A DNA stretch of 64,000 bases, from the NCBI GenBank assembly GCA_964016885.1, contig OZ024744.1:28396001-28460000 (forward strand), read 5' to 3'. This DNA comes from Eledone cirrhosa. Lineage: Eukaryota. The notes under the pieces are model-generated. The model was given only the letters and a program-made list of their open reading frames with translations, had not been told where the DNA came from and searched no databases. Numbering within the stretch: the first letter of the stretch is position 1; each line of letters opens with the position of its first letter. Shown in pieces: positions 41,116 to 63,074 of the stretch. Both the position numbers and the translations under genes were made by a program.

Positions 41116-41608
41116 TTTAACATAATTTGCATTTCTACGTGTTAGTAAATTTAAAGACATATTATTTTTCTCAACACAGATGTACCCTCACAGGATGTTA
41201 TGTTCGTATGCACTTGCAATTCATTTATTTATCCCACCGTATTAAAAACAAGATATCAGTCGTGTTCGTAGGTTTCACGTTCATTTACAGTTATGTTTCC
41301 TTTGATTTCTGTCTGCCTTTCTGTCTGTCTGTATAGATAGTTAAATATATAGATATCTTTCTTTATTTTCCACAGGGGCGTACAAAAATGGGACATTACA
41401 AGACGTGACGACGGAGGTTTTACATAAAATAATTAACAATGATAAATAACAATAAACTATATCAAAATAAAACAATTGAAATCCCCATTAGGGGAGTGGG
41501 GGTAACGCTACTGCGGGGTTGTTTTACACCCCGTGGATAGAATAACCCTCAACACCAGGAACACGTTTTGTAGGTGTTCCCGTCTTCCCTCTGTTTATCT
41601 TCCTCATC

Positions 41609-44600
41609 CTACAGGTTTATATACAGAGAAGGCCCATTCACCCGGACCATTTTCACCGCATTCACCCACCGTTCAGCGAATATACTGGGGTGTAGCACCT
41701 CTCTCTCCACTCTCACCTTCATTCTGAAGTGGTACTTAAAGAAGGGGATGAGTTGTTTTACGGAGAGAAAGGTGTTTGCCCTCAGTCCTTTTAACCTCGT
41801 CCACCATATTACCTCTTTCGCCATAACACCAGACAGAGGAAGACCGCCTCTCCTTCATTCTTAAATGGGGCGGCGGAGTGATCCTCACGATGGACTTGGG
41901 TGACAACTGGATACGTCCTACACGTGACAGTAGCTGTTTGACATAATTCCACAGGTCGGTCACCCCTGGGCACTGAACAATTGCGTGCAGAACGGTTTCT
42001 GCATCTTGGACAGGTCTTTTTGGCAAGATCTCTGCCAGGGCGTCCGTGCCTGTAGATTTTGTCTCGGACTGGTAGAGCTCATCGGTAGCACTGCCAGGCC
42101 AGAGACCTCTGGAAGTTATCCATACGCCCTAGATGGAAAGCCCTCCCGGACAGACTGGTCAGTTCGTCTTCCTCGATGCCTAGAGATTCCCCGAGAATGT
42201 CGTCGCACTTATCCTCCACTAATCCCCTATAGAATGTCGAAGTGGAGTCTCCGCCGATTGCAGTTTCCGCTTGGTAGAGGGCTGTGAGCGCCTGAAGGCA
42301 CTCGAGGTGCCAGACGCCCATTTTTGGTCTTCGCTCGACCCAGGACTGCAGCTCTGTTAGTGAGACGAGTTGTGGAAGAGCTCGTCTCACAAACGACAGC
42401 CACACCGGTTCGCCGGTCAGGAACACCTGGAGATGGCGTAGCCTCAGGGCGTGTTTGCGCATCATCAGCCATGCCATGCCCAGCCCTCCGCTAGAAGGGT
42501 GTTGATAGCAGATGGAGCTCCTCACCAATGGAGCCTGTTTCTTCTAGAGGAACTTGAAGAGTAGGCGCTCCATTTTGGTGAGGTATTCGCTGGACAAGGC
42601 ACGACTGTCAAGCGGTAGTAGATGACGGTCGCTATGTAAGTGTTTACTACCTTCGCTCGACCTTTCAAGGAGAGTTTACACGCAACCCACTTCTGGGTGA
42701 GTGCAAACACCTTCGCCGTGAATTCGTTCCAGTTCTTGTCCACCTGGAGGTCTGGACCAAACCAGACTCCGAGAAATTTCACCGGTCCTTCCGTCCAACG
42801 TCCAGCGACACTGTCGGAATGCATGGGTTTGCCTCTCCATGTGCCGAGTTGCAAACCGACAGACTTGTTTGGGTTTAGTCTTGTTCCTGTCAACGTTTCG
42901 TATTCCTGTAATAGGTTGCCGATTACTCCGATGTCTGAGGTTTTCGACACCATTACGGTTATGTCGTCGGCATAGGCCGACGCTGCTTTCCACAGTCCTG
43001 GTTCGATCGGGATGCGCTGCAACAGCTCCAACTTCTGCAGTAATGGCTCGAGAGTCAGTACATACAGAATGGAGGAGAGAGGGCACCCCCAATGGATGGA
43101 ACGCATGACTTGGAATGGCTCCGATAGGTAGCCATTCACCTTGACTGTCGAGCAGATGTTGCTGTGCATGGCAGCGACCCAGCTTCTGAAGACGGGACCG
43201 AAGCCGGACGCCTTGAGAACCGCTTCCAAGTATTGATGGTCGACCCTATCAAGTGCCTTAGACTGATCCAAATTGATCAGAGCCCCACCGAAGCCAGGTT
43301 TACACCATACCCTCCCTATGATATATCGCATGAGGTGGAGGTTGTCGCGTATGGACCTGGTCGGGATTGCACACATTTGCGCTTCCCCTACCAGATTCTC
43401 GACGACAAGCGCCAGCCTCGCTGCTAACACCTTGGCCAAAATCTTTAACTTGAGCAGAGTTATGGGCTTGAAATTGCTTATCTCATCCCCCTTGTTTTCA
43501 TCTTTCCTGATCAGAGTTACTACGCCTCTGCCTACAGAGCTGGGAATCCTCCCGTTCTGCTGCCAGTTGCAATAGACCGCTTCGAGGACGCCAGAGAACA
43601 AGTCTTGCATGCCTATGTAAAGCTCATAGGGTAGATCATCTAACCCGGGTGATTTGCGTTTTGCACAGCGGCCTAGGGCATCTTCTATTTCGCCAGCTGT
43701 AATCGGCCTTTCGCAGCTCTCCGCAGCCGTGTTCGAGAGTCGTGGTACACCGCTGAGGTAGGAACTGAAGTCATCACCTCGCTCGACGTACCGCTTTGCT
43801 GGAACAGTTGTGCAAAATGCTGCTGGAAGGCCGTGCACATCTGCTTGGATTCAAGTAGAATGCGTCCATCTTTGTCTTGCAAGGACCGAATTGTGGATTT
43901 GTTGTCACTTTCGCCTCTGCCACTCGGGCCCAGCCAACAGCTTTGGCTCCCTCGTTTCTTAGAGCACGTGCTCTACTTCTGACAATACAACCTTCGTGTT
44001 TCACGTTGAATAACTGGTCTAGTGCCGTTCTCACCGCTAGCACGTCAGCTGTATTGCCATTCCTAAGGGCCTCGTCTACTTTAGGTACCACTTCCTTTTC
44101 GGTTTTGTTTTTTTCTAAAGCTACTTCCTTGCTAAATGCTATCGATTTTATTCTAATAGCTCTCTTGAGAGAGCTCCACCACCTGTTGTTGACGATCGCC
44201 CCCGTCAACTGGCACTTAAATAAGATGCTAATCCGTTTACTGTAGTCTTTACGCGCTGGAAGCGACATGTTTGGCTATCTAAATACGATCTAGAAGACCC
44301 AGTGCGGTTGCTCCACGTCCACAGGTGGTACACTTGGGAAGTCTAGTCGATATCTATCAGCCAGTTGGAATTGGTTGATGAGATTTTTTAGACTACCCCC
44401 TCCCCTCTATTATCACAAGCTCCTACATAGTCCCAACGTGCATCTAAGATGCCATTCCGATCCCCCGCTAACACTAAGGAGCGAGACGTTCCCAGGAATG
44501 GCTCCATACGCTTGAAGAACTCTGGTCCCGGCCGCGAGTCTGAAAGCTCCACCTTCACTACCATTCACGTCCAGGACCACCAAGCTGCCCTCCGGGTCCA

Positions 44601-44866
44601 AGTGAATCGTTTGTACTTTGAGATTGAAGTTTTTTCGAAACAGAACAGCAACTCCCCATCCACCTCATGGCTGACAGAGAGATGCGTAGATCTCAAAGTC
44701 AACGAACATGGGGGGGGGGGGGTAATTGCTGCCTGTCGTGAATCCTGGACTCGGTGATGGTTATCACATCTATACAATGTGACCTGAGATCATTTAAAAG
44801 CTGGCCCTGTTTTCAGGGCATGCCTAGGCCAGGTACATTCAAACATCCAACTTGTATAGTCACCAT
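41609..44866 (-). pseudogene. E2 ORF2: APE endonuclease - reverse transcriptase - CCHC domain, frameshifted
   Basis: GCLNVPGL...DVITITESRI (EN), KSPGLDDLPYELY, FKPITLL, LDQSKALDRVDH, GCPLSSILY, YADD, FLGVWFG. Confidence 0.93.
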
Positions 44867-44896
44867 GTTGGTGAAGAAGAGTTAGAGAGAGAAAAC

Positions 44897-44904
44897 ATTT
44901 ACCT
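44897..44904 (-). promoter_or_regulatory. Predicted 5' splice donor AG|GTAAAT overlapping the E2 ORF1 stop (TAA)
   Basis: Same position as the donors in E4 and E5; this copy deviates from consensus at +5. Confidence 0.45.
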
Positions 44905-46643
44905 TTTCGCTTCCTGGAGGTCGGGTTATTCGATCTCCATGTGCAGATTGGGGGTGTTTGGGGAGAGAGGGAATCCTTTTAGAAGGACACGGTTAAGGGT
45001 TTTTTGGCAATGTTGGGTCCACAGCAGGTGGGAAGCTCCGTTTCAATGTTTCATGTTGTAGGGTTGTTACCCTGATCAGTTTGAGGTTTGTGGGTGAGTC
45101 GTTGGTGGGGAAGGTTTTCCCTTCTGTTTGTATTGTGGGGTCCTTTCGGACAGTGCCTACCAATTCTTTGTTTGTTGTTTTTATGTATGTGTAGTGTGTT
45201 TTGTTTTTTATGTGTGCTGTTTCTGTTTGTAGTTTTCTTTTTGTGGTTGAGCTTTGTGATTGTGGTGGTGTGGGTGTTTGTTTTGTTGGGAAGTGTTTGG
45301 TTGTGTTGGTGGTGATTTTGTTGTTGGTGCGTTTGTCGTTTGTGGCGGTGTGTTTATGTTGGTGTTGGGTGAGTGCGTCTCTTCTGTGGATGTTTTTGTA
45401 TTTTTTCTGTCTTTTTTCTTTTTTGGATTTTTGGGGTTCCTCTTCATTCTCACTTGGAGATGTAGAGGTTCCCGTGTGTGAGACTTCTGAATCAGGGGTA
45501 GATGGGAGGGGTATGTTGTGTGGTGGAGTGTTTGTGCAGGTGTTTGTGGAAGTATTTGACAGGGAGGGAGGAGGCATTGGAGAGTTTTTCAGTGGGATTT
45601 TGTGTGCGTGGGTGTCTCTGGTCTGTGGTGGTGTGGGAGTGGATGTTGCAGGTTTTTGTGTTGTATTTGGTTTGGGGTGTTGATGTCGGGGTTTTGGTGT
45701 TGGCAATAGCACCTTGTTTGTCCTAGGTTTGTTTAAGAGAGGGCAAAATGCCTTTAAGTGTGTGGTTTTCCCACACTTATGGCACTAAGGTATTTCCCCT
45801 CCACTAAAATGGAGATGACATCTTCCTCAATGACGATCCTGTCCGGGATTTTCTCAACTCTCTCTGGCCTTATTTGTACCAGAACCTCGATGCAGGTTGC
45901 AAACCAGTTATTCTGGTCTGTCCTGTCTGCAGATAAGAGGGTGTCCTGATCCTTCTTCAGGATGCAGCGTAGGATCCACCATATGTTGACCTCTGCTGGG
46001 ATCCTGGTTATTTTTATTTTGTAGGATCTTCTTCCCATGTATGTGTGGTAGAAAATGTGTTGATCCGTTTTTATTGGGTGAACCGAGTGTTTTTGTGCCA
46101 GAGTTTCGCTCTTAAAGAGCACTGACACACTTCCATACTGTTTAGCTCTTTGGAGGTATGCCACGTCTGGGTTTTTTTGGTAATGATGTCAACTGTTCTG
46201 TAGATCAGTTTCTTTTTCTGTCATCTCTCTTACTTGTGGGGATATGTGTATGTGTGGGGTGTCTCCCTCAAACGTCACATAGCTGGAGGCTTCTTCCAAA
46301 TATTGGGATTTTTGGGAAAAGTCCATAAGGTAATATTTAAAATCTTGTTGCCTAGCAACGGTTGCTGCAAATGAAATTTTGTTATTGTTGTTGTTGGTGG
46401 TGATGATGGTCTCATTCGTTGTGTTGCCGCTGATTCCTTTTGTTGTATTGTTGTTGTTCTCATTTATTGTGTTGTTGTTGTTGTTATTGTTGGTTGTGGT
46501 GGTGTTAGTATTGGCTACACATCCTTCTGTGTGTGGATACATGTGACGTTTGTGACGTCAGGCGTGTTCAGTTGCTTATAAGCAACTGGAGCTTGTTCCT
46601 CTTTTAAATATTGAGGCGATAATGTTGGCATTCCTTTGTCCAT
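44899..46643 (-). pseudogene. E2 ORF1 (gag-like, zinc knuckle, T/K/P-rich region), disrupted; start uncertain
   Basis: TYMGRRSYKIKI...VNIWWIL...EVLVQIRPER is homologous to ORF1 of E4 and E5. Frameshifted CHKCGKTTHLKAFC knuckle. Ends PDLQEAKR*. Confidence 0.8.
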
Positions 46644-46913
46644 GTCTGCTACTACCTGCTGGTCAAGTAGGCATGGCTTTCCCTTCCATCTTCTTGTATT
46701 GACAAAGAAGTAGGTGCCTTTGCTTCGGTCATTTTTATTTAAAATTGAAGTGTTTTGCAAAAATATTTTCGAAAATATGTTGGATGTTTTTGCCCTGAGG
46801 GGCACGATATTTTGGGAGACTGACCAGATCAAAATTTGACCATTCAGTCCCTCTACAAATTGGTATAAAAATAAAAGTTCACAATGACGAATTTCTAAAG
46901 AAATTTAAACAAA

Positions 46914-46922
46914 ACTTACCGA
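46914..46922 (-). promoter_or_regulatory. Predicted 5' splice donor TCG|GTAAGT ~30 nt from the E2 5' end
   Basis: Consensus donor followed by a T-rich sequence; E5 has an equivalent motif although the leaders are otherwise dissimilar. Confidence 0.5.
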
Positions 46923-46958
46923 GCAGGTTTAACACATTTGTCCCTCCCAGAGATAGAT

Positions 46959-49910
46959 AACTTTCTTTTTATTTGCCACCAGGGCATCAAAAAGTGGGAC
47001 AAGTACAATGGAGGTAGTTTACATAAAAAGGCGTCCTCACTAAGGAGGAGGCAATAACAAGATATAAAAAATAAAATATAAAATATAACAAAAATAAATT
47101 TAATAATAAAATCCACAATAGGGAGGAGGCGCCTTGGGGGTTCGCACACACCCCCGAAAAAAGTGTGCAACCATTCTCCTCAGGAGCACAGAGAGAGGGT
47201 GCTCCCTTGGTCTTTCATCTTCCTCACCTATAAAAACGGCTGGGGTCCAGCAACTCTCTCTCCATCCTGATTCTTCTTCCGAAATGATATCGGAAGAAAC
47301 GGACCAGTTGTTGGCCAGAGAAAAATGTGTCTGACCTCAGTCCTTTCAGACGCGTCCACCATACAACCTCTTTCGCCATGGCTATTGCGCACAGAAACAC
47401 CGCCTCTTCTTCGTTTTTGAAGTGGGGAGGCGGCTTGATCGTTACAATAGACTCGGTGGTCAACAGGATCGATCCCACCCTTGACAGCAGTTGTTCGACA
47501 TAGCCCCACAGATCGGCAATGCCCGAGCAGTGTACCAATGCGTGTGCAACGGTTTCCTCGTCGCACACGCATCTGGGACAGATCTTTTTCGAGGGGTCCC
47601 TACCCGGGCGCCCGAGTCTGTAGAGCCTTTCTCGAACGGGCAGAGCCCCTCGGTAGCACTGCCAGGCCAGGGACCTCTGGAAGTTATCCATGGGTCCCGG
47701 GCTGAATGTCCTACCGAATAGGTTGGCCAGTTCGTCTTCCTCCATGCCTAGGGCTTCTCCGAGGGCGTCGTCGCACCTGCTAACCACCAGCCCTCTATAG
47801 AATGACGAGGTGGATTCTCCACTGACAGCCGGATCCGCCTGCCAGAGAGCCGTGAGCGCCTGGGCACACTCAGTGTGCTAGGCGCCCAGCTTTCTTGGTC
47901 TTTACTTGACCCAGGATTGCAGCTCGGTGAGCGAGACGAGTCTGGGAAAGGCTCGCCTCACAAATGGGGCCCACACCGGTTGACCGGTGAGGAATACCTG
48001 GAGGTGCCGTAGCCTTAATGCGTGTTTACGTATCATTAGCCACGGCATCCTCAGCCTTCCTTTCGAAGGCTGCAGATGGATCTCCTCACCATAGGAGCCC
48101 GCTTCTTCCAAAGGAATTGGAAGAGTGCGCGCTCCATTTTGGCGAGCGTTTCCCTTGGGCAAGGCACGACGGTCATGCGTTAGTAGATGACGGACGCTAT
48201 ATAAGGGTTCGCCACCTCCGCCCGACCTTTCAGGGACAGTTTGCACTCGGCCCACTTTTGGGTCAGTGCAAACACCCTGTTCGTTACCTCACCCCAGTTC
48301 TTCTCCACCTGGAGGTCTGGTCCGAACCAGACCCCGTCAACTTCACCGGGCCCTCCGTCCAGCGCCCGACGACGCCATCGGAGGGCATCGATCTGCCCCT
48401 CCACGTGCCGAGTTGCAAACCGATCGACTTGTCCCGGTTCAGCTTAGCCCCTGTAAACCTTTCTTACTCCTCCAGTAAGTTTCCGATCGCCCCGATTTCG
48501 GAGACCGTCGACACCATTACTGTTACGTCATCGGCGTAGGCCGACACCGCTTTCCGCAATTCCGGTTCCAACGTTATGCTTTGCAACAACTTCCGCAGAA
48601 GTGGCTCTAGAGTCACTACATACAGAAGGGAGGAGAGAGGGCACCCTTGTCGGATGGACCGCGCGAATTCGAAAGGTTCCGAGAGGTAGCCGTTCACCTT
48701 GACCCTAGAGCAGATGCGGCTGCTGTGCATAACAGTGATCCAGCCGCTGAAAACGGGTCCGAAGCCTGCCACCGCTAGCACCACATCCAGGTAACCATGG
48801 TCGACCCTATCGAACACGTTAGATTGATACAAGTTGATCAGGGCCCCACCAATGATGTATTGCATGAGGTGGAGGTTGTCGTGGATGGACCTGGACGGGA
48901 TAGCACATGTCTGCGCATCTCCCACCAGATTGCCCACGACAAGCGCCAAACTCTTTGCTAGCACCTTGGCCAAAATCTGTAACTCTGTATTTAGCAGAGT
49001 TATGGGCTTGAAATTATTTATATCGTCCCCCTTGTACTCGTCCTTCCTCACTAGCGTGACTACACCCTTGGTCACAGCACTTCCTATTTCTATTTGAGGC
49101 TAACTCCTTACTAAATTCTATAGAGACTACTCTAATCTGTCTTTTGAGAGTACCCCACCTGCTGTTGACGATGGCGCCCGTCAACCGCTCCTTAACTAAA
49201 GTGTTAATCCGGTCCCTGTAAGCCTTACTTGCCGGTAAGGACAAGTTGAGCTTCCAATAACCGGGTCCCTGTCTATGCGTTCTGTTAAGGTTGACCATGC
49301 AGGTCACTAACTTGTGGTCTGAATAGCCAACCATGAGCATTTTTTGACAACTTAAAAAGTCCTTATCCTTATTTCTAACTAAGAACCTATCTAGGTATGA
49401 CCTAGATGTTCCGCTGCGGTTTACCCAAGTCCAGGTTGGCGCAGTCGGAAAATCTAGTCGATATCTATCGGTCAGGTCAAATCGACCGATTAACCCTTTG
49501 AGGCTGTTACACACCTCTCTATCGGGACAGGCCCCTACGTAGTCCCAACTAATAGCAAGGAGCGGGACGTCCCTAGAAAAGTCTCCAGACGATGGAGGAA
49601 GTCCGGCCGCGTTGACCCGAAAGGGCCGTAGACGGTACCAGCCTAAACGCTCCGCCTTCACCACTGCCAAGATCCTGAACCACTAGTCGACCCTCCGGGT
49701 TCAAATGTACCGTCTGTGTTGCGAGACCCAGGTGTTTTTGCAGCAGAACGACAACCCCACCCCCACCTCCGGGCTGACAGTCAGATGCGTGCATCTCAAA
49801 GTCATCAAAGGTGGCGGTCAGCTGTCGCTTGTTGCTGATCCGGGCCTAACCATTACATCTATACGTTGTGACCTGAGGTCATTTAGAAGCATTGCTTGCT
49901 TCCAATTGGA
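46959..49910 (-). mobile_element. L1/Tx1-type LINE copy E3, truncated within the first codons of ORF2, with internal deletions; subfamily B
   Basis: EN motifs SYLDRFLV and SDHKLV, GPGYWKLN; RT motifs IRQGCPLSSLLY and YADD. Deletion near 49078 and a ~55-nt deletion at the ORF2 end (~47230). 5' end abuts the E4 TATC tail. Confidence 0.92.
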
Positions 49911-50206
49911 GAGATAGATAGATAGATAAATAGATAGAAAGATGATTGACAGACAGATATATAGATAGATAGATAAATTTATTTACCACAAGGGCGCACA
50001 AGAAAAGGGGACAATACAAAGACATGCCGGGGATATTACATACAGTCTTGTAAAAAAATATAAAACAAACAATTATAACAATCGAAATCCCCAATAGCGG
50101 GAGGCGCCACAAATGGGTTGTTTAATACCCCGTCGATAGAACAACCCTCAACTTCAGGAGCGTGTTGTGAGAGTGCTTCTTTCTTCCTTTTGCTCTCTTC
50201 TTTAAC

Positions 50207-53200
50207 CTACAAGCTTATAAACAGAGAAGGCCCAATCACTCGGGCCATTTTCGCTTCATTCACCCACCTTTCAGTAAATTTACTGGGATGCAATGCCTCT
50301 CTCTCCACTCTGATTTTCCTTCTAAAGTGATACTTAAAGAAGGGAATCAATTGTTGTCCGGAGAGAAAGGCATCTGTCCTCACTCCTCTCAATCTCGTCC
50401 ACCATATAACTTCTTTCACCATAGCCACTCTACAGAGGAAAACCGCCTCTCTTTCGTTTTTGAAAGAAGTTGGCGGTTTGATCCTTACTATGGACTCGGC
50501 AGTCAACTGGATTTGTCCCATACGCGACAGAAGTTGTTCTGCGTAGTTCCACAGGTTGGTTACGCCCGGGCAGTGTACAATTGCGTGCAGGACGGTTTCA
50601 ATGTTCTGCGCGCATCTTGGACATGTCCTCTTGGAAGGATCCCTGCCGGGGCGTCCGTGCCTGTAGATCTTGTCACGAACTGGTAGAGCTTCTCGGTAGC
50701 AGTGCCAGGCCAGTGACCTCTGGAAGTTGTCCATAGATCCCGGGCGGAAAGTCCTACCAAACCGACTGGTGAGCTCATCGTCTTCGATGACCAGAGTCTC
50801 TCCGAGCGCATCGTCGTCTTTGTAACGTACAATCCCTCTATAGAATGTTGAAGTGGAGTCTCCACTGATTACTGTCCCCGCTTGCCAGAGGACTGCGAGC
50901 GCCTGAGCGTATTCAATGTGCCAGGCGCCCATCGTTTTCGTTCTTTTCTTGACCGAGGACTGCAGCTCCGTCAGCGAGACGAGCTGCGGCAAAGCCCGCA
51001 CCGGTTGGGGGCCGGTGAGGATTACCTGGAGATGCCGCAGCTTCAGCGCATGTTTGCGCATCATCAGACACGGCATTCCCAGCCCACCGTTGGAAGGGTG
51101 CTGATACCAGACGGATAACCTCACCAGCAGAACCTGCTCCTTCCACAGAAACTGGAAGAGCATGCGTTCCATCTTGGCGAGGTGTTCACGTGGACAAGGC
51201 ACGACAGTCAAGCGGTAGTAGATGACGGACGTTATGAAAGTGTTCGCCAACTCCACTCGCCCTTTCAAGGACAGTTTGCACTCTGCCCACTTCTGTATGA
51301 GCGCAAACTCCTTGGCCGTGACCTCGTTTCAGTTTTTCTCCACCTGGAGGTCTAGACCGAAGCAGACCCCGAGCAATTTCACCGGTCCGTCCGTCCAGCG
51401 TCCAACGACGCTGTCGGACGTCATCGGTTTTCCTCTCCACTTACCGAGTTGCAAACCGACAGACTTTTCCGGGTTTAGTTTTGCTCCCGTCAGCGTTTCG
51501 TATTATTTCAGTAAGTTGCCGATCATCCCGATTTCCGAGGTGTTCGACACCATTACCGTCACGTCGTCGGCATGAGCCAACGCCGCTTTGCGCAGTCCCG
51601 GTTCTAGAGGGATGCCCTGCAACAGCTCTAATTTCCGCAGTAGTGGCTCTAGAGTCAGTACGTACAGAATGGAGGAGAGAGGGCATCCCTGTCGAATGGA
51701 ACGCGTTATTGCGAACGGCTCCAATAGGTAGCCATTCACCTTGACCCTCGAGCAGATGCTGGTGTGCATCGCCTCTATCCAGCCTCTGAAAACGGGACCG
51801 AAACCGGCCGCCTTGAGAACCGCTTCCAATTATCGATGATCGATCTTATCGAATGCCGTAGACTGATCCAAATTGATCAGAGCCCCATCGAAACCGGGTT
51901 TACTACCCACCCTCTCTATGATGTATCGCATGAGGTGGAGGTTGTCGTGTATGGACCTGGTCGGGATTGCACACGTTTGCGATTTCCCTACCAGTTTTTC
52001 GACGACAAGCGCCAACCTCGTCGCGAGCACCTTGGCCAAAATCTTTAACTCTGTGTTGAGCAGAGTTATGGGCCTGAAGTTGTTAATTTCGTCCCCCTTT
52101 TTCTCGTCTTTCCTGGTCAGCGTTACTATGCCCTTGCCTGCAGAACTGGGAATTCTCCCGTTCTGCTGCCAATTGCAGTAGACGAACAAGTCTGGCATGT
52201 CTATGTAAAACTCATAGGGTAGACCATCTAGACCAGGTAACTTGCGTTTCCCGCAGCGGCCCAAAGCGTCCCGTATCTCAGCGTCCGTGATCGATCTTTC
52301 GCGGAACTCGGTGTCCTTGTTCGAGAGACGCGGCAGGCCGTCTAGGTATGAACTAAAGTTCATTGTCCCGTTCGGCTCACCGTCCTTCTGCTCAAACAGT
52401 CGCGCAAAGTGCTGCTGAAAGGCCGCGTACATTTGTTTGGGGTCAAGTAGCATGCGTCCGTTTTGGTCTTTCAAAGACCGAATCGTGGACTTGTTGCCAC
52501 TTTTTGCCTCTGCCACTCGGGCCCAGCTGACAGCTTTCGCTCCTTCGTTTCCTAGAGCATGTGTTTTGCTTCTGACCACGCAGCCTTCGTTTTTCCCGTC
52601 GAAACACTGGTCCACTGCCGTTCTGGACGCTAACATTCTCGTCGCGTTGCCATTTCTAAGTACCTCCTCTACCTTGGCTATTAGTTCTCTTTCTAGTTTG
52701 TTTTTCTCTACGGCTAACTCTCTGCTAAACGCTATCGATTCTACTCTAATTGCTTTCTTGAGAGTGTACCACTATCTATTGTTGACGATGGCTCCCGTTA
52801 ACTCCTGCTTGACTAGTCTACTTATCCGTTCACTGTAAGCTTTACGTGCCGGCAACGACACGTTCAGCTTCCAGTGTATCCGAGACCCTGTCTATGTATT
52901 CTATCACGGTTGACTAAACAGACGACTAATTTGTGATCTGAATAGGCAACCATGTGCATTCGTGGACAGCTTAACATCTCCTTGTCCCTTTCTCTAATGA
53001 AGAACCTATCTAAATACGATCTAAATGTACCGCTGAGGTTTGTCCACGTCCACTGTGGTGCAATCGGGAAATCTTGTCGATACCTATCGGGCAGTTGGAA
53101 TTGGCTGATTAGATTTTTGAGACTGTTGCGCCCCTCTCTACTGTGACATGATTCTACATAGACCCATCGTGCATCTAGGATACCATTCCAGTCCCCCACT

Positions 53201-53617
53201 AAAACCAAGGAGCGAGACGTTCTCAGAAAATACTCTAGACGCATAAAGAAGTCTGGCCGCGATTGTGATTGCCCGGTCGGGGCATAAACGGCCACCAGTT
53301 TGAAGGCTCTACCTCCAATACTGTTCACATCTAGGACCACCAATCTACCCTCCGGGTCCAAGTACTTGCTGTACTTCGAGATCCAGGTTTTTCCGAAACA
53401 TGACAGTCACTCCCCCTCCAGCTCCCGGCTGACAGAGAGATGCGGAGATCTCAAAGTCATTGAAGATGGGGGTTAGTAGCTGCCTGTTGTGGATCCTGGA
53501 CTCGGTGATGGCTATTACATCTATACCGTGTGACCCAAGGTCGTTTAAAAGTTGGCCCTGTTTCCAGGACATCCCTAGGCCACGCACATTCACGCTTCCA
53601 ACTCGTAAGTCAACCAT
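50207..53617 (-). pseudogene. E4 ORF2 (EN-RT-CCHC) with stops and frameshifts
   Basis: MVDLRVGSVNVRGL, VYAPT, LVGDWN, YLDRFF, SDHKLV, PGLDGLPYEFY, NFRPITLLNTELKILAK, RQGCPLS, HADD, CPRC...H...C. Confidence 0.93.
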
Positions 53618-53656
53618 GTTGGTGGAGAAGAGTTGGAAAAAAGGACGAAAAGGTGC

Positions 53657-53664
53657 ACTTACCT
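53657..53664 (-). promoter_or_regulatory. Predicted 5' splice donor AG|GTAAGT overlapping the E4 ORF1 stop (TAA)
   Basis: Perfect match to the U1 snRNA-complementary consensus AAG|GTAAGT. Confidence 0.55.
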
Positions 53665-54846
53665 TTTCGTTTCCTGGAGATCGGGTTGTTCAATCTCTAT
53701 TTCAGTTCTTGTAGGGGTATTGGGTTGGATGGGGAAACATTTTAATAAGACGCATTTAACAGGATTTTGACAAGGGTTGCCAACATCCTGCGAAAATTGT
53801 TCTTTCAATTTCTGATAGGCTTCTATTGAAATTCTTATTAGTTTTAGGCGTGGAGACGATTCTGCCTTGACGAAAGTTTTGCCTCCGTCTCCACCTTATG
53901 GTTTTGGGAGATGACCTCCATCAAACTCTTGTTGTTTGTGTTGATGTATGCGTATTGTTTTTTTTTTTTTTGTTGTGTTGTTTTAGTTTGTTGTTCGTCC
54001 GGGAGTTTTCTTTTTATGGTGGGTGCTTGTGTTTGGGGTGGTGTTGGTGTTGATTTTGCTGGTAGGGGGATTTTTGACTGTGGTGTTGTTTGTGTTGTTG
54101 TTTGTGTCTGTCGTTGTGTGTTGGTGTTGGTGATTGGAGTTTTGGGGGGTTTGTGGTGTCTCTTTTTTTGTTTTTTAGATTTCCGAGGCTCTTCTTCTTC
54201 ACTTAAAGAAGGAGAATCAACCTCATCTGTTGTTGAATAATCATCGTCAGGAATGTGGGTTAGGGGTATGTTGTGTGGTGGTGGTGTTTTGGCGCGTGTG
54301 TTTGTGGTAGTGTTAGATGGAGTGGGATGGGGTGGGTCTGTGTTCTTCAGGGGTGTTGTCTGTGTTTTTCTGTTGTTGTTGGTTGAGTGGCTGTTTGTTT
54401 TGGTGTGTTTGCTCGTTTCGTCTGTTGCTGTACTTGTGGTGGTTGTTGTTTTCGTGTTGGTGTTGGTAATAGTGTTTTTTAATGATGTTGTTGTGGTGTG
54501 TTTGTAAAGGGCATGAGGCCTTTAGGTGTGTTGTGCTACCACAGCGAAAGCAATGAAGTTTACGACCCTTCACCGAAATGTTTATTTTGTTGTTGTCGTC
54601 GATGACGACTTTTTCGGGTGTTTTGGAGATTCTCTCCAGCCTCATCTGTATCAGAATCTCCAAATCTCTACCCGCCCACCTTTGTCTAATAGTCTTTCGT
54701 ATTGAAAGAATAGCATCAGTTTCTGGCTCCACGAAGCCAGCCAAGATCCACCAGACGTTAATGTTTGGTGGTATATTTTTATTTTTTATTTTTTGTGTCC
54801 TTTTTCCAATGTAGGTAAGGAAAAAGGACACGTTATATTCACGGGG
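53659..54846 (-). pseudogene. E4 ORF1, 5'-incomplete, disrupted
   Basis: TYIGKRTQKIK...INVWWILAG; CFRCGSTTHLKASC zinc knuckle; ends EQPDLQETKR*. Confidence 0.82.
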
Positions 54847-54848
54847 TA

Positions 54849-54995
54849 TAAAAAAATCCGTTGTAACGAAATATTTTTTATAGCGAGATCGACCAAAGCA
54901 AATCGTTTTTTTGTTATTACCTCCGAGATTGAAAAACATTTCGTTATACTGAAAAAATTGTTTTTATGTCATTCGTTATAACGGAATTTTACCTG
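54849..54995. mobile_element. Possible Tc1/pogo-type MITE
   Basis: Imperfect inverted ends AAAATCCGTTGTAACGAA and TTCGTTATAACGGAATTTTACCTG, flanked by TA. The left end is degraded. Confidence 0.4.
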
Positions 54996-55309
54996 TATAT
55001 ATATACAAATAGTAAAATAAAAACTATATAATATTTATACATAGTATATATTATATTATTTATTATATATAAATTAACGATTGTATTTATTATATATTAT
55101 TTACAGTTTGTGTGTAGGTAGGTCTCTCTGGAAATAGGGTTGAAGGGCTGAGGATGTAACATGGCCGTGAGGGGTGGGGAGGGGCTCCAAACGTTTGAGA
55201 ACCTCTGCTCTATTCTATTGACGTTTATACTGCAATATATCGATCTAGATTTTTTAATTCATAATATCTGAAATCAATATTGTTTTTTTTATTTGCTTTT
55301 AAATATTAG

Positions 55310-55760
55310 TGTTGTTGTTGCTTCTTGGTTGTTGTTGTTGTTGGTGGTGAGGTGGGGTGGTAGTTGTTATGGTGGTAGTGGTGGTGAAGGTGATGGTTGT
55401 TGTTGAGGTGGAGTTGTGGTGTTTGTGGAGGTGGTGTTGATGGTGTTGCTACGGTGATGGTGGTGTTGCTGTGGTGGTGGTGGTGGTGGTGTGATAGTGG
55501 TGGTGGTGGAGGTAGTGGTGGTGGTGGTCGCGGTTGTGGTGTTCACAGTGGTGATTGTGGTTGCGGTTGCGGTTGCGATTGTTGTAGAGTTGGAGGCAGT
55601 GGTGCTGTGGTGGTGTTGATGGTGTTGCTGTGATGCTGGCGATGGCTGTGATGTTAGTGGTGATAATGGTAGTGGTGATAGTGGTGTGGTGGAGGTGGTG
55701 GTGGTAGTGGCTTTAGTGTTAGTTTGTTGTTACTGTTGGTGATGGTGATGAAGATAGCGA
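55310..55760. repeat. Degenerate (GGT/GTT)n low-complexity tract
   Basis: Seen directly. Confidence 0.85.
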
Positions 55761-56034
55761 TGATAATGTCTATAACACTGGACGTTAGCAATCAATGCAA
55801 ATATATATATTTTATATACCTTTTATTTATTTTCTGTGTGTTTTTGTTTAATTGTATTTTGTGTTTGTCTGTTCACTTATGAAAATGGCTACCAACTGGT
55901 CTCCTGTATCTTCCTGTCTCCTCTTGTCATATCATTTTTTGGTATTTTTTCCTTTATTTTTCGTTTGTTTGGAATCTTTTTTATGATTTTTTTCGCATGT
56001 TTATCTTCTATTTTCATTTTTTATTTAATTATCA

Positions 56035-56125
<91 letters not shown>

Positions 56126-56134
56126 GTTGTTATT

Positions 56135-56362
56135 CCTTGAATCTCAGTCATTGATGTTGGTTAACTGGAAAGTCCGTTGGATTGAATATCAAGCCACTAC
56201 CTGCAGCCTCAGATATTCAGGACGTATCGGAGGGTTCTTGCTGTTCCAAGCAAGCATGCCTTTTGAAGCGTTCCAAAAAGCGTGAAGGGGCCGATTTTCT
56301 TTAACCATCCCTGGAAACTTTTGGAGATAGTCCCCAGTGCGCCTATGACAATCGGGATCACT
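56135..56362 (-). mobile_element. 5'-truncated R4/Dong-type (restriction-like endonuclease) non-LTR element within (TAA)n
   Basis: 56361-56209 translates to VIPIVIGALGTISKSFQGWLKKIGPFTLFGTLQKACLLGTARTLRYVLNI*, the typical R4/Dong C-terminus. (TAA)n on both sides matches known Dong targeting. Confidence 0.85.
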
Positions 56363-56381
56363 ATTATTATTATTATTATTA

Positions 56382-56416
<35 letters not shown>

Positions 56417-56426
56417 GTTTTTTTTT

Positions 56427-56518
56427 ACACGCAGAAATGCCCATTTGTACCGTCCTGTATTGTCCTGTACTTTCCTTAATGTCTACTTTGTGTAAACCCT
56501 TATGGTTAATAAAGAAAG

Positions 56519-56520
<2 letters not shown>
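56427..56520 (+). mobile_element. ~95-nt 3'-terminal fragment of a related LINE with a (TTA)n tail (56521-56610)
   Basis: Ends CCCTTATGGTTAATAAAGAAAGCA-(TTA)n, compared with CCCCTGTGGCTAATAAAGAAATA-(TATC)n in E6. Confidence 0.5.
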
Positions 56521-56611
<91 letters not shown>

Positions 56612-57219
56612 CTAATGTGTGTTTTTTTTTCTATATTATTTCGTTTTTCGTTTTTTTTCCCGTTATATCACCATAATGTCATCAGCTATGACTAGCTCGA
56701 CTCTGTTCACTCTATGTGACGATGTGACTACATGTATTTTTATATAGATATTGTTGTTACACAGTAAATAAAACGAACAATTAGCTTTGTTTCATGCTGT
56801 GTCGACAGTGATATATACAGATTGCTAGGGTAAACAGATTGATAGGATAAACAGATTGATAGGATAAACAGATTGATTAACTGATTGGTTATTAGATATA
56901 TAAACAGTTGGACAGAGAGACAGACAGAGGGCTAGCCAGATAAATGGATAGATAAATATATAGATAGATATGTTTCTTTATTAGCCACAGGGGCACAAAA
57001 GAAGGGGAGAAGTTTACATACAAAGGGGGAAGTTTACATACAATAAAAACGTGTAAAATATTATCACAAATGCAATTGAAAAGTTAATCGATTTTTCCCC
57101 AATACGGGGAGGGAGACATTTCATATGGGTAACACATACCCCCGAAAAAATGTGCAACCCTCATCTCCAGGAATACGAAGAGTTTGTACCCCTTTCCTCT
57201 CTTCCTCCTTTTCCTCAAC

Positions 57220-60200
57220 CTACAGGCTGATATAGAGAGAAAGCCCATTCACTCGGGCCATTCTCGCCACTTTCACCCACCTTTCATAAAACTTGCTGGG
57301 GTACAGCACCTCGCCCTCCATCCTGATTCTTCTTCCAAAGTGGTATTTGAAAAAAAGAATCAGTTGTTGGCCGGAGAGAAAGGTGTCTGACCTCAGCCCT
57401 TTTAACCTCGTCCACCACACAACCTCTTTCGCCATAGCTATCACACAAAGGAAAACCGCCTCTCTTTCGTTTTTGAAGGAGGGTGGCGGTTTGACCATGA
57501 CAATGGACTCGGTGGTCAACCGGATTGGTCCCACTCGCGACAATAGTCGTTTTACATAGCTCCACAGGTGGGTAACGCCCGGGCAGTGTATGAATGCGTG
57601 CGCGACGGTTTCTTCGTCGCGCACGCATCTCGGACAGATCTTTTTCGAAGGGTCCCTGCCCGGGTGCCCATGTCTGTAGAGCTTGTCTCGAACTGGTAGA
57701 GCTCCTCGGTAGCACTGCCAGGCCAGGGACTTTTGGAAGATGTCCATCGGTCTCGGGCGGAAGGTCCTACCGAACAGACTGGCCAGTTCGTCTTCCTCTA
57801 CGCCCAGAGTTTCACCGAGCACGTCGTCACACTTGCTGCAGATCAACCCTCTATAGAATGACGAAGTGGAGTCTCCACAGATCGCCGGGTCCGTTTGCCA
57901 GAGAGCTGTGAGCGCCTGAGCACATTCGATTTGCCAGTCGCCCATTTTCCTCGGTCTTTGATTGACCCTGGACTGCAGCTCGGTCAACGAGACGAGTCGT
58001 GGGAAGGCTCGCCTCACGAACGGGTCCCACACTGGTTGTCCGGTGAGGAATACGTAGAGATGCCGCAGCCTTAGCGCGTGTTTGCGCATCGTCAGCCACG
58101 GCATCTCCAGCTCTCCGTTGGAAGGGTGTTGGCAGCAGATGGATCTTCTCACCAAAGGAGCCCGCCTCTTCCAAAGGAATTGGAAGAGCGCGCGCTCCAT
58201 TTTGGCGAGCGTTTTGGCTGGACAAGGCACGACGGTCAAGCGGTAGTAGATGGCGGACGCTATAAAAGTGTTCGCCACCTCCGCTCGACCTTTCAAGGAT
58301 AGTTTGCACTCGGCCCACTTCTGGGTGAGTGCAAACACCTTGGCCGTGACCTCGTTCCAGTTCTTCTCCACCTGGATGTCCGGACCAAACCAGACCCTGA
58401 GCAGCTTTACCGGTCCTTCCGTCCAGCGTCCGACGACGCCATCGGAAGGCATCGGTTTGCCTCTCCACGATCCGAGTTGGAAACCGATGGACTTGTTCCG
58501 GTTCAGCTTCGCTCCTGTGAACCTTTCGTATTCCTTCATTAAGGTGCCAACTTCCTCGATTTGCGAGGTGCTCTATACCATTACTGTCACGTGGTTGGCG
58601 TAGGCCGACGCCGCTTTCCGCAGTCCCGGTTCCAGAGGGATGCCCTGCAATAGCAGCTCCAGCTTCCGCAGTAGTGGCTCGAGAGTCAGTAGGTACAGAA
58701 GGGAGGAGACAGGGCCTCCCTGTCGAATGGACGGCTCTGAGAGGTAGCCGTTCACCTTGACCCTTGAGCAGATGTTGCCGTTGTGCATTGCAACAATCCA
58801 GCCCCTGAACACGGGTCCGAAGCCTGTCGCCTCGAGCACCGCATCCAGATAACGATGGTTAAACCTATCGAGAGCCTTTGACTGATCCAAGTTGATCAGG
58901 GCCTCACCGAAGCCGGGTTGCGATGTATCGCATGAGGTGGAGGTTGTCGTGTATGGACCTGGACGGTATTTCGCAGAACTTCGCCTCGCTGTCCGAGAAT
59001 CGCGGTAGGCCGTCGAGGTATAGACCGAAATCCATAGCCCCTCCCGACGCGCTGCCCTCCCCTAACAGCTGAGCAAAGTGCCGCTGGAAGGCCGCTCACA
59101 TCTGCTTCGGCTCACGAATTACGCGTCCGTCTTGGTCCTTCAAAGACCGAATCGTGGACTTGTTGTCACTTTTTGCCTCCGTCACCTGGGCCCAGCTAAC
59201 AGCTTTGGCTCCCTCGTTACCTAGAGCACATATTTTGCTTCTGACAACGCAGCCGTCGTGCTTTGCGTCGAAGAACTGGTCCAAGGCCGTTCTCGTTCCT
59301 AGCACGCTGGCTACGTTGCCACTTCTAATTGCCTCTTCTACTTTATCTATCAGTTCCTTCTCAGTCCTATTTCTATTTAACGCTAATTCTTTACTAAAAA
59401 TTAACGAGTTTAATCTAACTGCCCTTTTGAGAGAGTACCACCATCTGTTGTTGACAATGGCCCCCTGTCGAGTGCTGTTTAACTAAAGTGCTAATCCGTC
59501 TACTGTAGGCTTTGCATGTCGGTAACGACAAGTTCAGCTTCCAGTACCCGGGTCCTTGTCTATGGGTTCTATCAAGATTGACCATACAGGTCATTAGTTT
59601 GTGATCTGAATAGGCAACCATGAACATTTGTGGACAGCTTTATTTCTAACTAGATCCCTATCTAGGTATGATCTAGATGTTCCGGTGAGATTCGTCCACA
59701 TCCACAGTGGCACAGTCGGAAAATCTAATCGATATCTATCGGCCAGATCAAATCGGCCGATTAACTGTTTGAGGCTGTTACACCCCCTTTTATCAGGACA
59801 TGCTCCAACATACTGTCAACGTGCATCTAGGATTCCATTCCAGTCCCCCACTAAAAGCAAGGAGCGGGACGTTCCCAGAAAAGTCTCTAGACGTTTGAAG
59901 AAGTCTGGCCGCGGTGTCCCGGATGGGACATAAGCAGCCACCAGCCTGAAGGCTCCACCTTCACTACCGTCAACGTCTAGGACCACCAGTCGACCCTCTG
60001 GGTCCAGTTGTATCGTCTATGTTACGAGGTCCAGTTGTTTCCGCGGCTGACAGAGAGATGCGTAGATATCAAAGTCGTCGAAGATGGCGGCCAGCTGTCG
60101 CTCACTGTGGATCCTGGACTCGCAAATGGCTACTACGTCCATACTGTGCAACCTGAGGTCGTTTAAGAGTTTGCCCTGTTTCCAGGGCATCTTCAAGCCG

Positions 60201-60235
60201 CGTACATTCACACACCCAACTCTTATATTGGCCAT
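57220..60235 (-). pseudogene. E5 ORF2 (EN-RT-CCHC), disrupted; C-terminal 439 codons still open
   Basis: MANIRVGCVNVRGL, AICESRI, SDHKLM, GPGYWKLN, DQSKALDR, CPRCVRDEETVAHAFIHC. Confidence 0.93.
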
Positions 60236-60272
60236 GTTGGTGCTGAAATGTTAAAAGAAGAGAAAAGAAATC

Positions 60273-60280
60273 ACTCACCT
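60273..60280 (-). promoter_or_regulatory. Predicted 5' splice donor AG|GTGAGT overlapping the E5 ORF1 stop (TGA)
   Basis: Consensus GAG|GTGAGT. The stop is TGA rather than TAA but the GTRAGT consensus is kept. Confidence 0.55.
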
Positions 60281-61542
60281 CTTCGTCTCCTGGGGACCAG
60301 GCTGCGCAATGTCCATGGGGGTGTTGGAGGATTTGTTTGGTAGGGTGGTGGTTCCTGGCGGGGTGGGGACGGAGATGTTTGGTGGGGAGGGGGTGTCTGC
60401 TAGGGTGGGGTGGGTAAACGTTTCAAGAGGACGCGGTTCGTTGGTTTAACACACATATTCTCCACGTCATCAGCAACATTTTCCTTTAAGGATTTATGGG
60501 TGTCCGTAGGGACCCTAATCATCCTTAAATTAGGTTTGTCTTTACATTTGGTAAATTATTTTCCTTCAGTTTCCACGGAAGGGTTTTTGGAGATGACCTC
60601 CATCAAGGTTTTATTGTCAGTGTTTATGTATGTATAATATTTTTGTTGTGTTGTGTTAGTTTTTGTCTGTTGTTCTTGTGTGTGTTTTCGTTTTGTTGTG
60701 GTTATTTGTGTTTGGAGTGTTGCCATTATTTTGTTTTCGGGACGGGGGATTTTTGTTTCTAATGTTTGTGTTGTTTGTGTTGTTTGTGTTGTTTGTGTTG
60801 TTTGTGTTGGTGGTTGTGTGTTTGTTGCCTTTTTGTTCGTGTTATGTCTTTTTTTCCTTTTTTTTGGAGCGGAGGGGTTCTCCCTCATCATCACTGAGTG
60901 ATGACGAGGGGTCCTCGTCCGCTGTGGTATCTGTGTTATTTGGAAGAGGTTTATTTGGGGAGCTGTTGTGTTTGTGGGTGTTTTTGCAGTGGTTTTAGGT
61001 GGAGTGGGGTTGGGTGGGATTATGCTTGCAGTTTGGTTTATTGTTCTTGTTTTGGTTATGTTTCCGTGTTGTTGTTGTTGTTGTTGTTGCTGTGGTGGTT
61101 GTGTTGTTGTTTTGGGTGTTGGCAGTAGTGCCTCTTGTTTTTTTGTAGTTAGCTGAGGACAGTAAGCCTTCAGGTGACCACTGCTTAGACAGTGGTAACA
61201 TGAAGGCCGCCTACTCTCAACAGAAATGTTTATGTGTGAAATACCATCCAGAGGCACACGTTGGGGTATTTTAGCTATCCGTTCTGGCCTCATTTGGACC
61301 AGAACTTCCACGCTTGTACCATTGAATGTGCCTCTGGGGGACTTTTCCACGGAAATGAAGGTGTCTTCATCGAAATCGATGAAGCCAATCAAAATCCACC
61401 AAACGTTTACATTTGGTGCAATGTTCGAAATGTTTATCTTCTGGGTTCTTTTTCCCATGTATGTGGGGAAAAAGGTGTAAAGGGGGGACACAATCGGCGA
61501 CACAGAATAACTTTGTGCCGTCAATTGGTCTTTCAATAACAC
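60275..61542 (-). pseudogene. E5 ORF1, N-terminus deleted, disrupted
   Basis: TYMGKRTQKINI...VNVWWILIG; CYHCLSSGHLKAYC knuckle; ends MDIAQPGPQETKR* after a probable frameshift. Confidence 0.82.
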
Positions 61543-61791
61543 TGAAATGTAACAATGTGTGATTTACCGAAATGTAACAATGTGTGACTTACAGCGTTCG
61601 CTGTAAGTCACACATTGTTAAAGTTAGGAACATTTTAAAAACTTGTCAAGTTTTTAAAATTAAATTTCCGCCCCTGTGGGGCGAAAACTGAGATTACCAG
61701 CCAGCTGACAATTCAGCCTGGGTGTTAATCTATCAAACAATATAACATTTTACACAATGAATTCTGTTTTTGTATGGAAAATTTTACAAAA

Positions 61792-61800
61792 ACTTACCAG
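61792..61800 (-). promoter_or_regulatory. Predicted 5' splice donor CTG|GTAAGT ~25 nt from the E5 5' end
   Basis: Consensus donor; equivalent to 46914-46922. Confidence 0.5.
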
Positions 61801-61842: not shown

Positions 61843-63074
61843 ATTTCTTTATTAGCCACAGGGGCACAAAAGAAGGGGACAAATACAAAGGGGGAAGTTT
61901 ACATACAATAAAAACGTGTAAAATGTTATCACAGATGGAATTTAAAAGTTAGTCGATTTTCCCCAATAGAGGGAGACAGTTTATATGGGTAACACAGACC
62001 CCCGAAAAAAATGTGCAACCCTCATCTCCAGGAGTACGAAGAGCTTGTACTCCTTTCCTCTCCTCCTCCTTTTCCTCAACCTACAGGCTGATATAGAGAG
62101 AAGGCCCATTCACTCGGGCCATTCTCGCCACTTTCACCCACCTTTCATAAAACTTGCTGGGGTACAGCACCTCTCTCTCCATCCTGATTCTTCTTCCAAA
62201 GTGGTATTTGAAAAAAAGAATCAGTTGTTGGCCGGAGAGAAAGGTGTCTGACCTCAGCCCTTTCAACCTTGTCCACCATACAACCTCTTTCGCCATAGCT
62301 ATCACACAAAGGAAAACCGCCTCTCCTTCGTTTTTGAAGGAGGGTGGCGGTTTGATCATGACAATGGACTCGGTGGTCAACTGGATTGGTCCCACCCGCG
62401 ACAATAGTCGTTCCACATAGCCCCACAGGTCAGTGACGCCCGGGCAGTGTATGAATGCGTGCGCGACGGTTTCTTCGTCTCGCACGCACCTCGGACAGAT
62501 CTTTTTTGCAGGGTCCCTGCCCGGGCGCCCATGTCTGTAGAGCTTGTCTCGAACTGGTAGAGCTCCTCGGTAGCACTGCCAGGCCAGGGACTTTTGGAAG
62601 TTGTCCATCGGTCCCGGGCGGAAGGTCCTACCGAACAGACTGGCCAGTTCATCTTCCTCCACGCCTAGAGTTTCACCGAGCGCGTCGTCGCACTTGCTGC
62701 GGACCAACCCTCTATAGAATGACGAAGTGGAGTCTCCACTGATCGCCGGGTCCGCCTGCCAGAGGGCTGTGAGCGCCTGAGCACATTCGATGTGCCAGTC
62801 GCCCATTTTCCTCGGTCTCTGCTTGACCCAGGACTGCAGCTCGGTCAGCGAGACGAGTCGTGGGAAGGCTCGCCTCACGAACGGGGCCCACACCGGTTGT
62901 CCGGTGAGGAATACGTAGAGATGCCGCAGCCTGAGCGCGTGTTTGCGCATCGTCAACCACGGCATCCCCAGCCCTCCGTTAGAAGGGTGTTGGCAGCAGA
63001 TGGATCTTCTTACCAAAGGAGCCCGCCTCTTCCAAAGGAATCGGAAGAGGGCGCGCTCCATTTTGGCGAGCGTT
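61843..63074 (-). mobile_element. L1/Tx1-type LINE copy E6, 5'-truncated, ORF2 fragment uninterrupted (62081-63073); subfamily A, probably young
   Basis: Open frame TLAKMERALF...VNGPSLYISL*; (TATC)n on both sides. Confidence 0.94.

Follow-up and report, generated by a model that had tools for sequence, protein, structure and literature searches.

In a microsatellite-targeting long interspersed nuclear element (LINE) of the octopod Eledone cirrhosa, the stop codon of open reading frame 1 (ORF1) lies within a consensus U2-type 5' splice site, ORF2 ends in what appears to be a usable splice acceptor, and the sequences on either side of ORF2 are predicted to pair in a long-range helix, or clamp, that loops out the whole reading frame. 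The element is present in a 64,000-nucleotide (nt) stretch of contig OZ024744.1 (positions 28,396,001 to 28,460,000, forward strand), and this whole stretch is called the window below. Our preferred reading, to which we give a probability of about 45%, is that regulated splicing would produce an ORF1-only message and that a hepadnavirus-like clamp would restrain it. The family is judged to be of the L1/Tx1 type, with its Tx1 placement taken from protein domains and target preference rather than from a tree. Seven subfamilies of this 3.0-Gb animal genome were compared (E5, E4, E2, B, Y1, Y2, and Y3); Y1 and Y2 were gathered by protein search and Y3 by its 3' end, so that none of these three was chosen on its donor.

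A first-pass annotation of the window had proposed that ORF2 is an intron running from stop codon to stop codon, with minus-strand donors AAAG/GTAAAT at 44902, AAAG/GTAAGT at 53662, and AGAG/GTGAGT at 60278 (a slash marks an exon-intron boundary), and all three sites are exactly as described. The site at 44902 is a decayed copy of the E2 type, in which 24 of 30 close copies read GTAAGT; among genomic neighbours, the type at 53662 (E4) reads GTAAGT in 28/30 and that at 60278 (E5) reads GTRAGT in 27/30. The ORF1 stop is embedded in AG/GTRRGT in all seven subfamilies, with TAA, TGA, and TAG all occurring, and the end of ORF1 varies (QETKR, QEPNR, or RDAER) while the donor remains constant. Donor positions -2, -1, +1, +2, +5, and +6 are invariant in 7/7 subfamilies, +3 and +4 vary among purines only, and +7 to +14 all vary. 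When ranked by simple counts, the ORF1-stop donor was best or tied-best of 276 to 293 GT sites in 8 of 9 representative elements, and it was retained in samples that had not been chosen on it (16/17 copies of Y1 and, among 40 copies of Y3, 13 of the 14 that are full length). Counted by eye, the arrangement G-stop-GT occurs in 0/23 distant L1/Tx1-like loci that have an ORF upstream; these control loci came from a metagenome scan, and their ORF2 start was set at the first Met, perhaps wrongly in some. A viral scan and a first metagenome scan gave no confirmed matches. Because one subfamily, Y3, keeps a perfect donor where pairing in the helix described below is broken, the donor looks to be under selection in its own right.

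The ORF2 ends given by the annotation are likewise correct, namely YTGTAG/G at 34609, 41609, 50207, 57220, 62081, and 63431 and TTTTTATAG/G at 47228. ORF2 terminates in TAG/G in all seven subfamilies of this genome and, counted by eye, in 0/36 distant L1/Tx1-like loci. Loss of GTRAG or TAG/G from sister subfamilies, which the annotation had named as an outcome that would speak against its proposal, was not seen. By simple counts, only 0 to 4 of the 99 to 124 YAG sites have a better pyrimidine tract than the YAG at the ORF2 stop, which is preceded by 13 to 15 pyrimidines in 20 nt, and an AATAAA follows the stop by 222 to 242 nt, a normal size for a terminal exon. These features support the ORF2 end as a usable acceptor. 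The suggestion that synonymous pyrimidines before it are kept beyond coding need gains something from six invariant positions among eight four-fold sites, a figure that is not decisive against a background of 46%. A competing AG 7 nt upstream, which the annotation had raised as a caveat, is present in 6/7 subfamilies.

Splicing at TAG/G would rebuild an Arg codon followed by an immediate stop (AG/G TGA) in B, Y1, and Y2, giving an ORF1p identical to the unspliced one; it would add 27 to 49 residues in E4, E5, and A-type tails, 27 residues in another frame in E2, and at least 41 residues in Y3. Splicing at the AG 7 nt upstream would end ORF1p in S-L-stop in 6/7 subfamilies, so that either acceptor would give a terminated ORF1p. 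The conserved basic tail that had been predicted is therefore rejected, since the tails range from 0 to 49 residues, reach at least 41 in Y3, and change frame in E2. Subfamily B does differ in frame, as had been noted; B, Y1, and Y2 are the cleanest case (Arg plus stop, with ORF1p unchanged). Frameshifting or readthrough to an ORF1-ORF2 fusion was rejected as a common mechanism because the stop-to-ATG distance differs and with it the frame of ORF2 relative to ORF1 (the two are in frame in Y1 but not in E4, E2, and E5). As a separate observation, ORF1 and ORF2 of Y1 are in frame across a TAG, and in one copy (L276) this stop is lost, leaving an open frame of 1781 codons.

The pyrimidine spacer between the ORF1 stop and the ORF2 AUG is reverse-complementary in sequence to the ORF2 stop and the next ~40 nt. 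The predicted helix covers the ORF2 AUG and the acceptor, and its parts in the window are as follows.

60273..60281, minus strand: E5 donor-like site GAG/GTGAGT containing the ORF1 stop TGA; first base of the putative intron at 60278.
60230..60278, minus strand: E5 spacer and ORF2 start (ATG at 60235-60233), the 5' strand of the predicted clamp; the spacer ends TTTCAG/CACCAACATG in the E5 subfamily.
57220..60235, minus strand: E5 ORF2 (APE, RT, zf-RVT), broken in the window copy; the looped-out segment and putative intron.
57182..57230, minus strand: E5 ORF2 end, CAG/CCTGTAG/G (two possible acceptors), with the first 38 nt of the 3' untranslated region (UTR), the 3' strand of the clamp; predicted duplex -39.3 kcal/mol, z -5.6.
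57166..57195, minus strand: E5 3' UTR hairpin with an 8-bp stem and a 9-nt loop, a competitor of the outer clamp helix.
53612..53665, minus strand: E4 donor AAG/GTAAGT (53662), spacer, and ORF2 ATG (53617).
50153..50217, minus strand: E4 ORF2 end (stop ends at 50207), clamp partner, and decayed hairpin; duplex -31.7, z -3.7 (young E4 copies, -53.6).
44861..44905, minus strand: E2 donor (44902; decayed GTAAAT, GTAAGT in the family), spacer with an 8-nt deletion, and ORF2 ATG (44866).
41554..41619, minus strand: E2 ORF2 end (stop ends at 41609), clamp partner, and 9-bp hairpin; duplex -39.4, z -5.1.

Pairing was evaluated in 67 copies that hold both ends, 3 from the window and 64 from 120 retrieved stretches; copies lacking one end were left out, as were Y1 copies, which are near-identical. 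Compared with shuffled UTRs, z was at or below -3 in 56/67 copies and at or below -2 in 65/67, and the median energy was -43.3 kcal/mol against -21.6 for the shuffles. The sense strand paired better than the antisense strand in 47 of the 67. Only 1 of 30 distant L1/Tx1-like loci reached a z of -3 or lower; at this metagenomic locus (L149) the spacer pairs with the 3' end at z -4.1, possibly by chance among 30.

When the two strands are aligned in a gap-free register anchored on the UTR hairpin, 8 to 12 of the first 13 positions are paired, and compensatory double changes occur at +3 (A-U/G-C), +4 (A-U/G-C), +8 (C-G/U-A), and +13 (U-A/G-C). With one copy per subfamily, 15/5040 permutations did at least as well as the true matching of spacers to UTRs when the whole helix was scored, 21/5040 for the donor end, and 130/5040 for the inner end, figures that come from windows picked after the helix had been seen and from subfamilies that are related and mosaic. 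Y1 and Y3 have lost 12 to 20 nt of spacer, with both helix ends kept. The Y3 spacer was predicted in advance from a UTR in the window (63431), and the real spacer pairs at 8/9 positions from +5 to +13, its inner part having altered in step with the UTR (CCACC against GGUGG); in this instance the clamp was predictive. The Y3 donor is still GAG/GTAAGT although +2 to +4 are all mismatched, and its retention thus has a cause other than pairing. Since the donor is also partly unpaired in Y2 and in A-type tails, universal masking of the donor by the clamp is ruled out; what stays constant in the predicted folds is not the donor cover but the inner helix, which spans the ORF2 AUG and AG/G in all seven subfamilies. 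Complementary, covarying segments appear to lie over both donor and acceptor, as in the duplex of duck hepatitis B virus (DHBV), with the cover of the donor partial in Y2, Y3, and A tails.

The clamp had been overlooked in the first-pass annotation, and it alone could explain TAG/G, the CTG codon before it, and the purine run that follows. This run is real and had been likened to exonic splicing enhancers; as the partner strand of the pyrimidine spacer, it is explained without them. A 3' UTR hairpin with a covarying 8-bp stem stands at a fixed distance in all subfamilies, and because the outer part of the clamp pairs with its 5' arm and loop, the two folds would partly exclude each other. Further down the 3' UTR, at +60 to +130 in all subfamilies (e.g., window 57090-57160), is a second covarying hairpin of the GGGTTG...CAACCC type, beyond which lies a C-rich/G-rich pair, a candidate ORF2p recognition structure.

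Taking the donor, the acceptors, the complementarity, its covariation, and the competing 3' UTR hairpin, all of which are seen in the sequence, we infer the later steps of a possible mechanism. U1 would bind the donor at the ORF1 stop while ORF2 is still being transcribed. As the end of ORF2 and the 3' UTR emerge, either the spliceosome would join the donor to one of the two AGs or the clamp would close. Splicing would leave a terminal exon of about 230 nt with AATAAA and yield extra ORF1p from a minority of transcripts. In most transcripts the clamp would cover AG/G and the ORF2 AUG, and the full-length RNA would be kept for ORF2p and as template; a ribosome at the ORF1 or ORF2 stop might then open the clamp and free the hairpin, which is a guess. 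We hold only tentatively that all of ORF2 is a regulated intron and that the contest of clamp and hairpin sorts one transcript into an ORF1-only message or an unspliced genomic RNA with ORF2 repressed. By analogy, and with equal reserve, the two RNA pools of such a scheme may resemble those of hepadnaviruses and copia.

A second intron-like segment lies in the 5' UTR, where five subfamilies, which between them have two 5' UTR types, carry a GT-AG stretch of 67 to 69 nt. A cap-proximal GTAAGT stands 27 to 43 nt from the 5' end, with TAG at 67 to 69 nt (also in copies L104, L301, and L213), and in the E4 stretch a CTAAT is spaced as a branch point would be. In Y1 and two B copies a donor is kept there but the matching acceptor is not. 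Two such stretches are in the window.

61730..61797, minus strand: E5 5' UTR intron-like stretch of 68 nt, CTG/GTAAGT ... GATAG, 29 nt from the 5' microsatellite.
46853..46919, minus strand: E2 5' UTR intron-like stretch of 67 nt, TCG/GTAAGT ... TTTGTAG.

Splicing from the E4 5' UTR donor, either to the acceptor at the ORF2 end or to its own, was considered and found in 0 genomic copies. In one Y1 copy (L267, about 2100-2220), the complement of the 5' UTR donor GTGAGT lies before it, a local hairpin, and TTTTCCAG follows at 108 nt.

Several observations weigh against regulated splicing of ORF2. Exact TAG/G junction patterns of the E4, E5, E2, and B types had 0 genomic matches against 996 unspliced ones, the single apparent match being a mutated unspliced copy, and exact patterns for Y1 and Y3 likewise found 0 copies. 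The retroposed ORF1-only copies that the first-pass annotation had anticipated were thus not found genome-wide with the exact junction, nor was a HAL1-like family of ORF1 plus 3' UTR, in a pattern search that did not extend to junctions at the upstream AG or at other points. No genomic copy of E4 with a spliced 5' UTR intron was found either, a count that has no genome-wide control. In three contig sets from one sample, none of the 15 joints listed for Y1 starts at the donor, and the E5 splice is absent among the 15 joints listed for E5, beyond which there are 297 more; read depth in these sets rises toward the 3' end, and this fits genomic DNA, the kind of sample being unrecorded. As no part of the 3' UTR would be lost on splicing, genomic copies of the spliced RNA would be expected had it been copied efficiently in trans. 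An RNA that lacks ORF2 cannot copy itself in cis, however, and human L1 proteins act mainly in cis (PMC5860796); unless the 3' hairpin recruits ORF2p in trans, the lack of spliced copies is thus no argument against abundant splicing.

The splice signals themselves also admit doubt. The acceptor may be a by-product of the clamp, whose inner helix includes both TAG/G and CTG among its paired bases, and no branch-point consensus stands out by eye, as the annotation had cautioned. The donor is partly unpaired in the subfamilies named above, and the products at the TAG acceptor are not uniform. That the donor is conserved beyond coding need is borne out by its strong placement in all seven subfamilies, but 46% of four-fold sites (143/309) show no variation among the seven either, and the neutral chance that +1, +5, and +6, the three uncoded positions, stay fixed is ~0.14. 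What stands of the stop-to-stop intron is a conserved strong donor, a usable acceptor, and an ORF1-only product; there is no sign of splicing itself among the genomic copies searched.

The same evidence can be read with the clamp acting in the cytoplasm and no splicing at all, the main alternative, plausible though doubtful, in which holding the ORF2 AUG against the ORF2 stop would limit or recycle ORF2 translation, the 3' end would be folded near the ORF1 stop so that the two-gene RNA evades nonsense-mediated decay (NMD), and the donor would only dock U1, guarding against premature 3' end formation or controlling export. This would suit an inner helix that lies over AUG and stop in 7/7 subfamilies and covaries (130/5040 permutations), the retention of both helix ends in Y1 and Y3 despite their spacer losses, and the lack of spliced genomic copies. 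It would leave unexplained the near-top YAG rank of the ORF2-end AG and the junction-rebuilt stop in three subfamilies, and a perfect donor upstream of a terminal exon is usually spliced. Shielding of internal poly(A) signals by U1 was rejected, as ORF2 of four intact copies contains no sense AATAAA or ATTAAA for U1 to suppress. In its favour, fold-back of the poly(A) end suppresses NMD (PMC2689704), reinitiation in SART1 requires RNA structure downstream of the ORF1 stop (PMC10275272), and U1 blocks early termination in EVD (PMC5580714). If clamp and hairpin instead serve retrotransposition, through the choice of RNA in cis and recognition of the 3' tail, the splice-like motifs would be an ancestral accident. 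A conserved, covarying hairpin does stand at a fixed distance in all subfamilies, the ORF2 proteins of stringent LINEs bind a 3' stem-loop (PMC4176376), and some invariance is expected among subfamilies only 63 to 95% apart at four-fold sites; we nevertheless consider this unlikely, given a donor retained where it is unpaired (Y3), a sharp edge of conservation at +6, and a donor that is the best of about 290 GT sites.

Two further explanations fare worse. A micro-intron of 37 to 39 nt, from the donor to an AG just before the ORF2 ATG, would fuse ORF1 and ORF2, or the 5' UTR donor could use that AG to make an ORF2-only message. E5 and Y2 carry TTCAG/CACCAACATG there, with the element's strongest pyrimidine tract, and the join is in frame. 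The AG is missing from E4, E2, B, Y1, and Y3, however, ORF2 retains its own CAACATGG start, and 0 such junctions were found genome-wide, even though ORF2 would be present in cis on such an RNA; with an intron very short for an animal, we regard this as very improbable. Compositional chance, by which a pyrimidine-rich spacer and a purine-rich UTR would pair anyway, has in its favour that the purine-rich B tail pairs strongly with every spacer, that the E2 spacer pairs equally with the E4 tail and its own, and that in whole-locus scans another purine-rich window scored above the ORF2 stop in 3/7. Shuffles that preserve composition reach about half the energy, though, and the fixed register, the compensatory changes, and the successful advance prediction leave it hardly tenable; covariation has largely refuted it.

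Regulated ORF1-only splicing under a clamp would have partial parallels elsewhere. DHBV has complementary sequences near donor and acceptor that guard the reverse-transcription template from excess splicing (PMC3356268), but it is a virus, whereas here the putative splice sites coincide with a pair of stop codons and the predicted helix extends over the ORF2 start as well. The Ty1/copia element EVD (PMC5580714) and barley BARE1 (PMC3735527) make a structural-protein-only message in excess over enzyme and have a strong conserved donor and a second role for U1; in contrast, they are one-ORF elements with long terminal repeats (LTRs) that use a short intron and early termination, so that the whole of pol is not removed, and the accessible portions of these papers describe no long-range clamp. 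Human L1, with its spliced integrated retrotransposed elements (SpIREs; PMC5860796), is likewise a LINE in which splice sites are conserved and most transcripts escape splicing, and its ORF proteins act mainly in cis. Those sites, however, are located in the 5' UTR and within ORF1, splicing harms the element, and spliced forms make up ~2% of full-length copies, whereas 0 were found here. SART1 (PMC10275272) and the stringent LINEs (PMC4176376) share RNA structure after the ORF1 stop and a 3' UTR hairpin, respectively, but those structures are local, and here a predicted pairing over a 3.4-kb range joins both. No stop-to-stop intron or ORF2 clamp of a LINE was found in the literature searched, whose scope excluded most subscription papers and Repbase.

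The arrangement touches three open questions of LINE biology, namely how one RNA gives much ORF1p and very little ORF2p, how a LINE chooses its own RNA for copying, and how it escapes decay with an ORF1 stop 3.6 kb from the 3' end. One small mutable structure would connect the stop codons of both reading frames, the start of ORF2, and the 3' hairpin, and natural compensatory variants exist in seven subfamilies, three of them with intact copies (ORF2 is naturally intact in Y1, Y3, and part of E4). If splicing occurs, a non-LTR element would have a copia-like expression strategy; if it does not, a long-range RNA clamp would still be new to LINEs within the literature searched. Host transcripts, too, could be affected by the perfect donor that thousands of genomic copies carry.

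Placement of the family rests on several features. ORF2 contains Exo_endo_phos (APE), RVT_1, and zf-RVT (Pfam; an intact 1145-aa ORF2 and pieces from the window), and its best PDB match is human L1 ORF2p (E 3e-52), with R2 at 3e-23. A separate upstream ORF1 has 577 aa in copy L267, 26/40 Y3 copies have no ORF2 start inside the retrieved stretch (5' truncation), and the 5' and 3' ends of the element differ, so it has no LTRs. Outside Y1, (TATC)n flanks 32/33 5' ends and 39/60 3' ends, well over a 20% threshold for target preference. A CCHC zinc knuckle in ORF1 is a Tx1-clade feature; the zf-CCHC match here is weak (E 0.0068), below the Pfam cut-off. The Tx1-clade elements Kibi and Koshi (PMC4494074) are alike in having two ORFs, an ORF2 with APE, RT, and zf-RVT, perhaps a CCHC-like ORF1 knuckle, and microsatellite insertion; they differ in target repeat, and splice sites and an ORF2 clamp are not described in the accessible part of that paper.

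Positions 1-30000 of the window are a large degenerate satellite array of 39/42-bp, GTT-rich units with an AT skew of about -0.63. From 34 kb onward there are seven LINE copies, all on the minus strand and partly stacked head to tail, joined by (TATC)n runs. Four of these contribute only an ORF2 end with its hairpin to the features considered here.

63382..63441, minus strand: young Y3 copy, ORF2 end (stop ends at 63431) and hairpin; its ORF1 end is outside the window and reads GAG/GTAAGT (L282).
62027..62091, minus strand: 5'-truncated copy directly upstream of E5, ORF2 end (62081) and hairpin.
47179..47238, minus strand: internally deleted copy E3, ORF2 end (47228), G TGA following the AG, and hairpin.
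34555..34619, minus strand: further copy, ORF2 end (34609) and hairpin.

Mosaic copies (L126, L127, L213, L216-L218, L220, and E5 of the window) combine the spacer or 5' UTR of one subfamily with the 3' UTR of another, and recombination between subfamilies appears common. Y1 (L262-L281) is very young, with dozens of near-identical intact copies that lie within a ~70-bp tandem repeat and not in (TATC)n. The E5 copy has a deletion at the start of ORF1 (61544-61615), with a 25-bp duplication and a small inverted repeat, and two minisatellites are found at 36408-36978 (109 bp, 5 copies) and 39074-39593 (28 bp, 19 copies).

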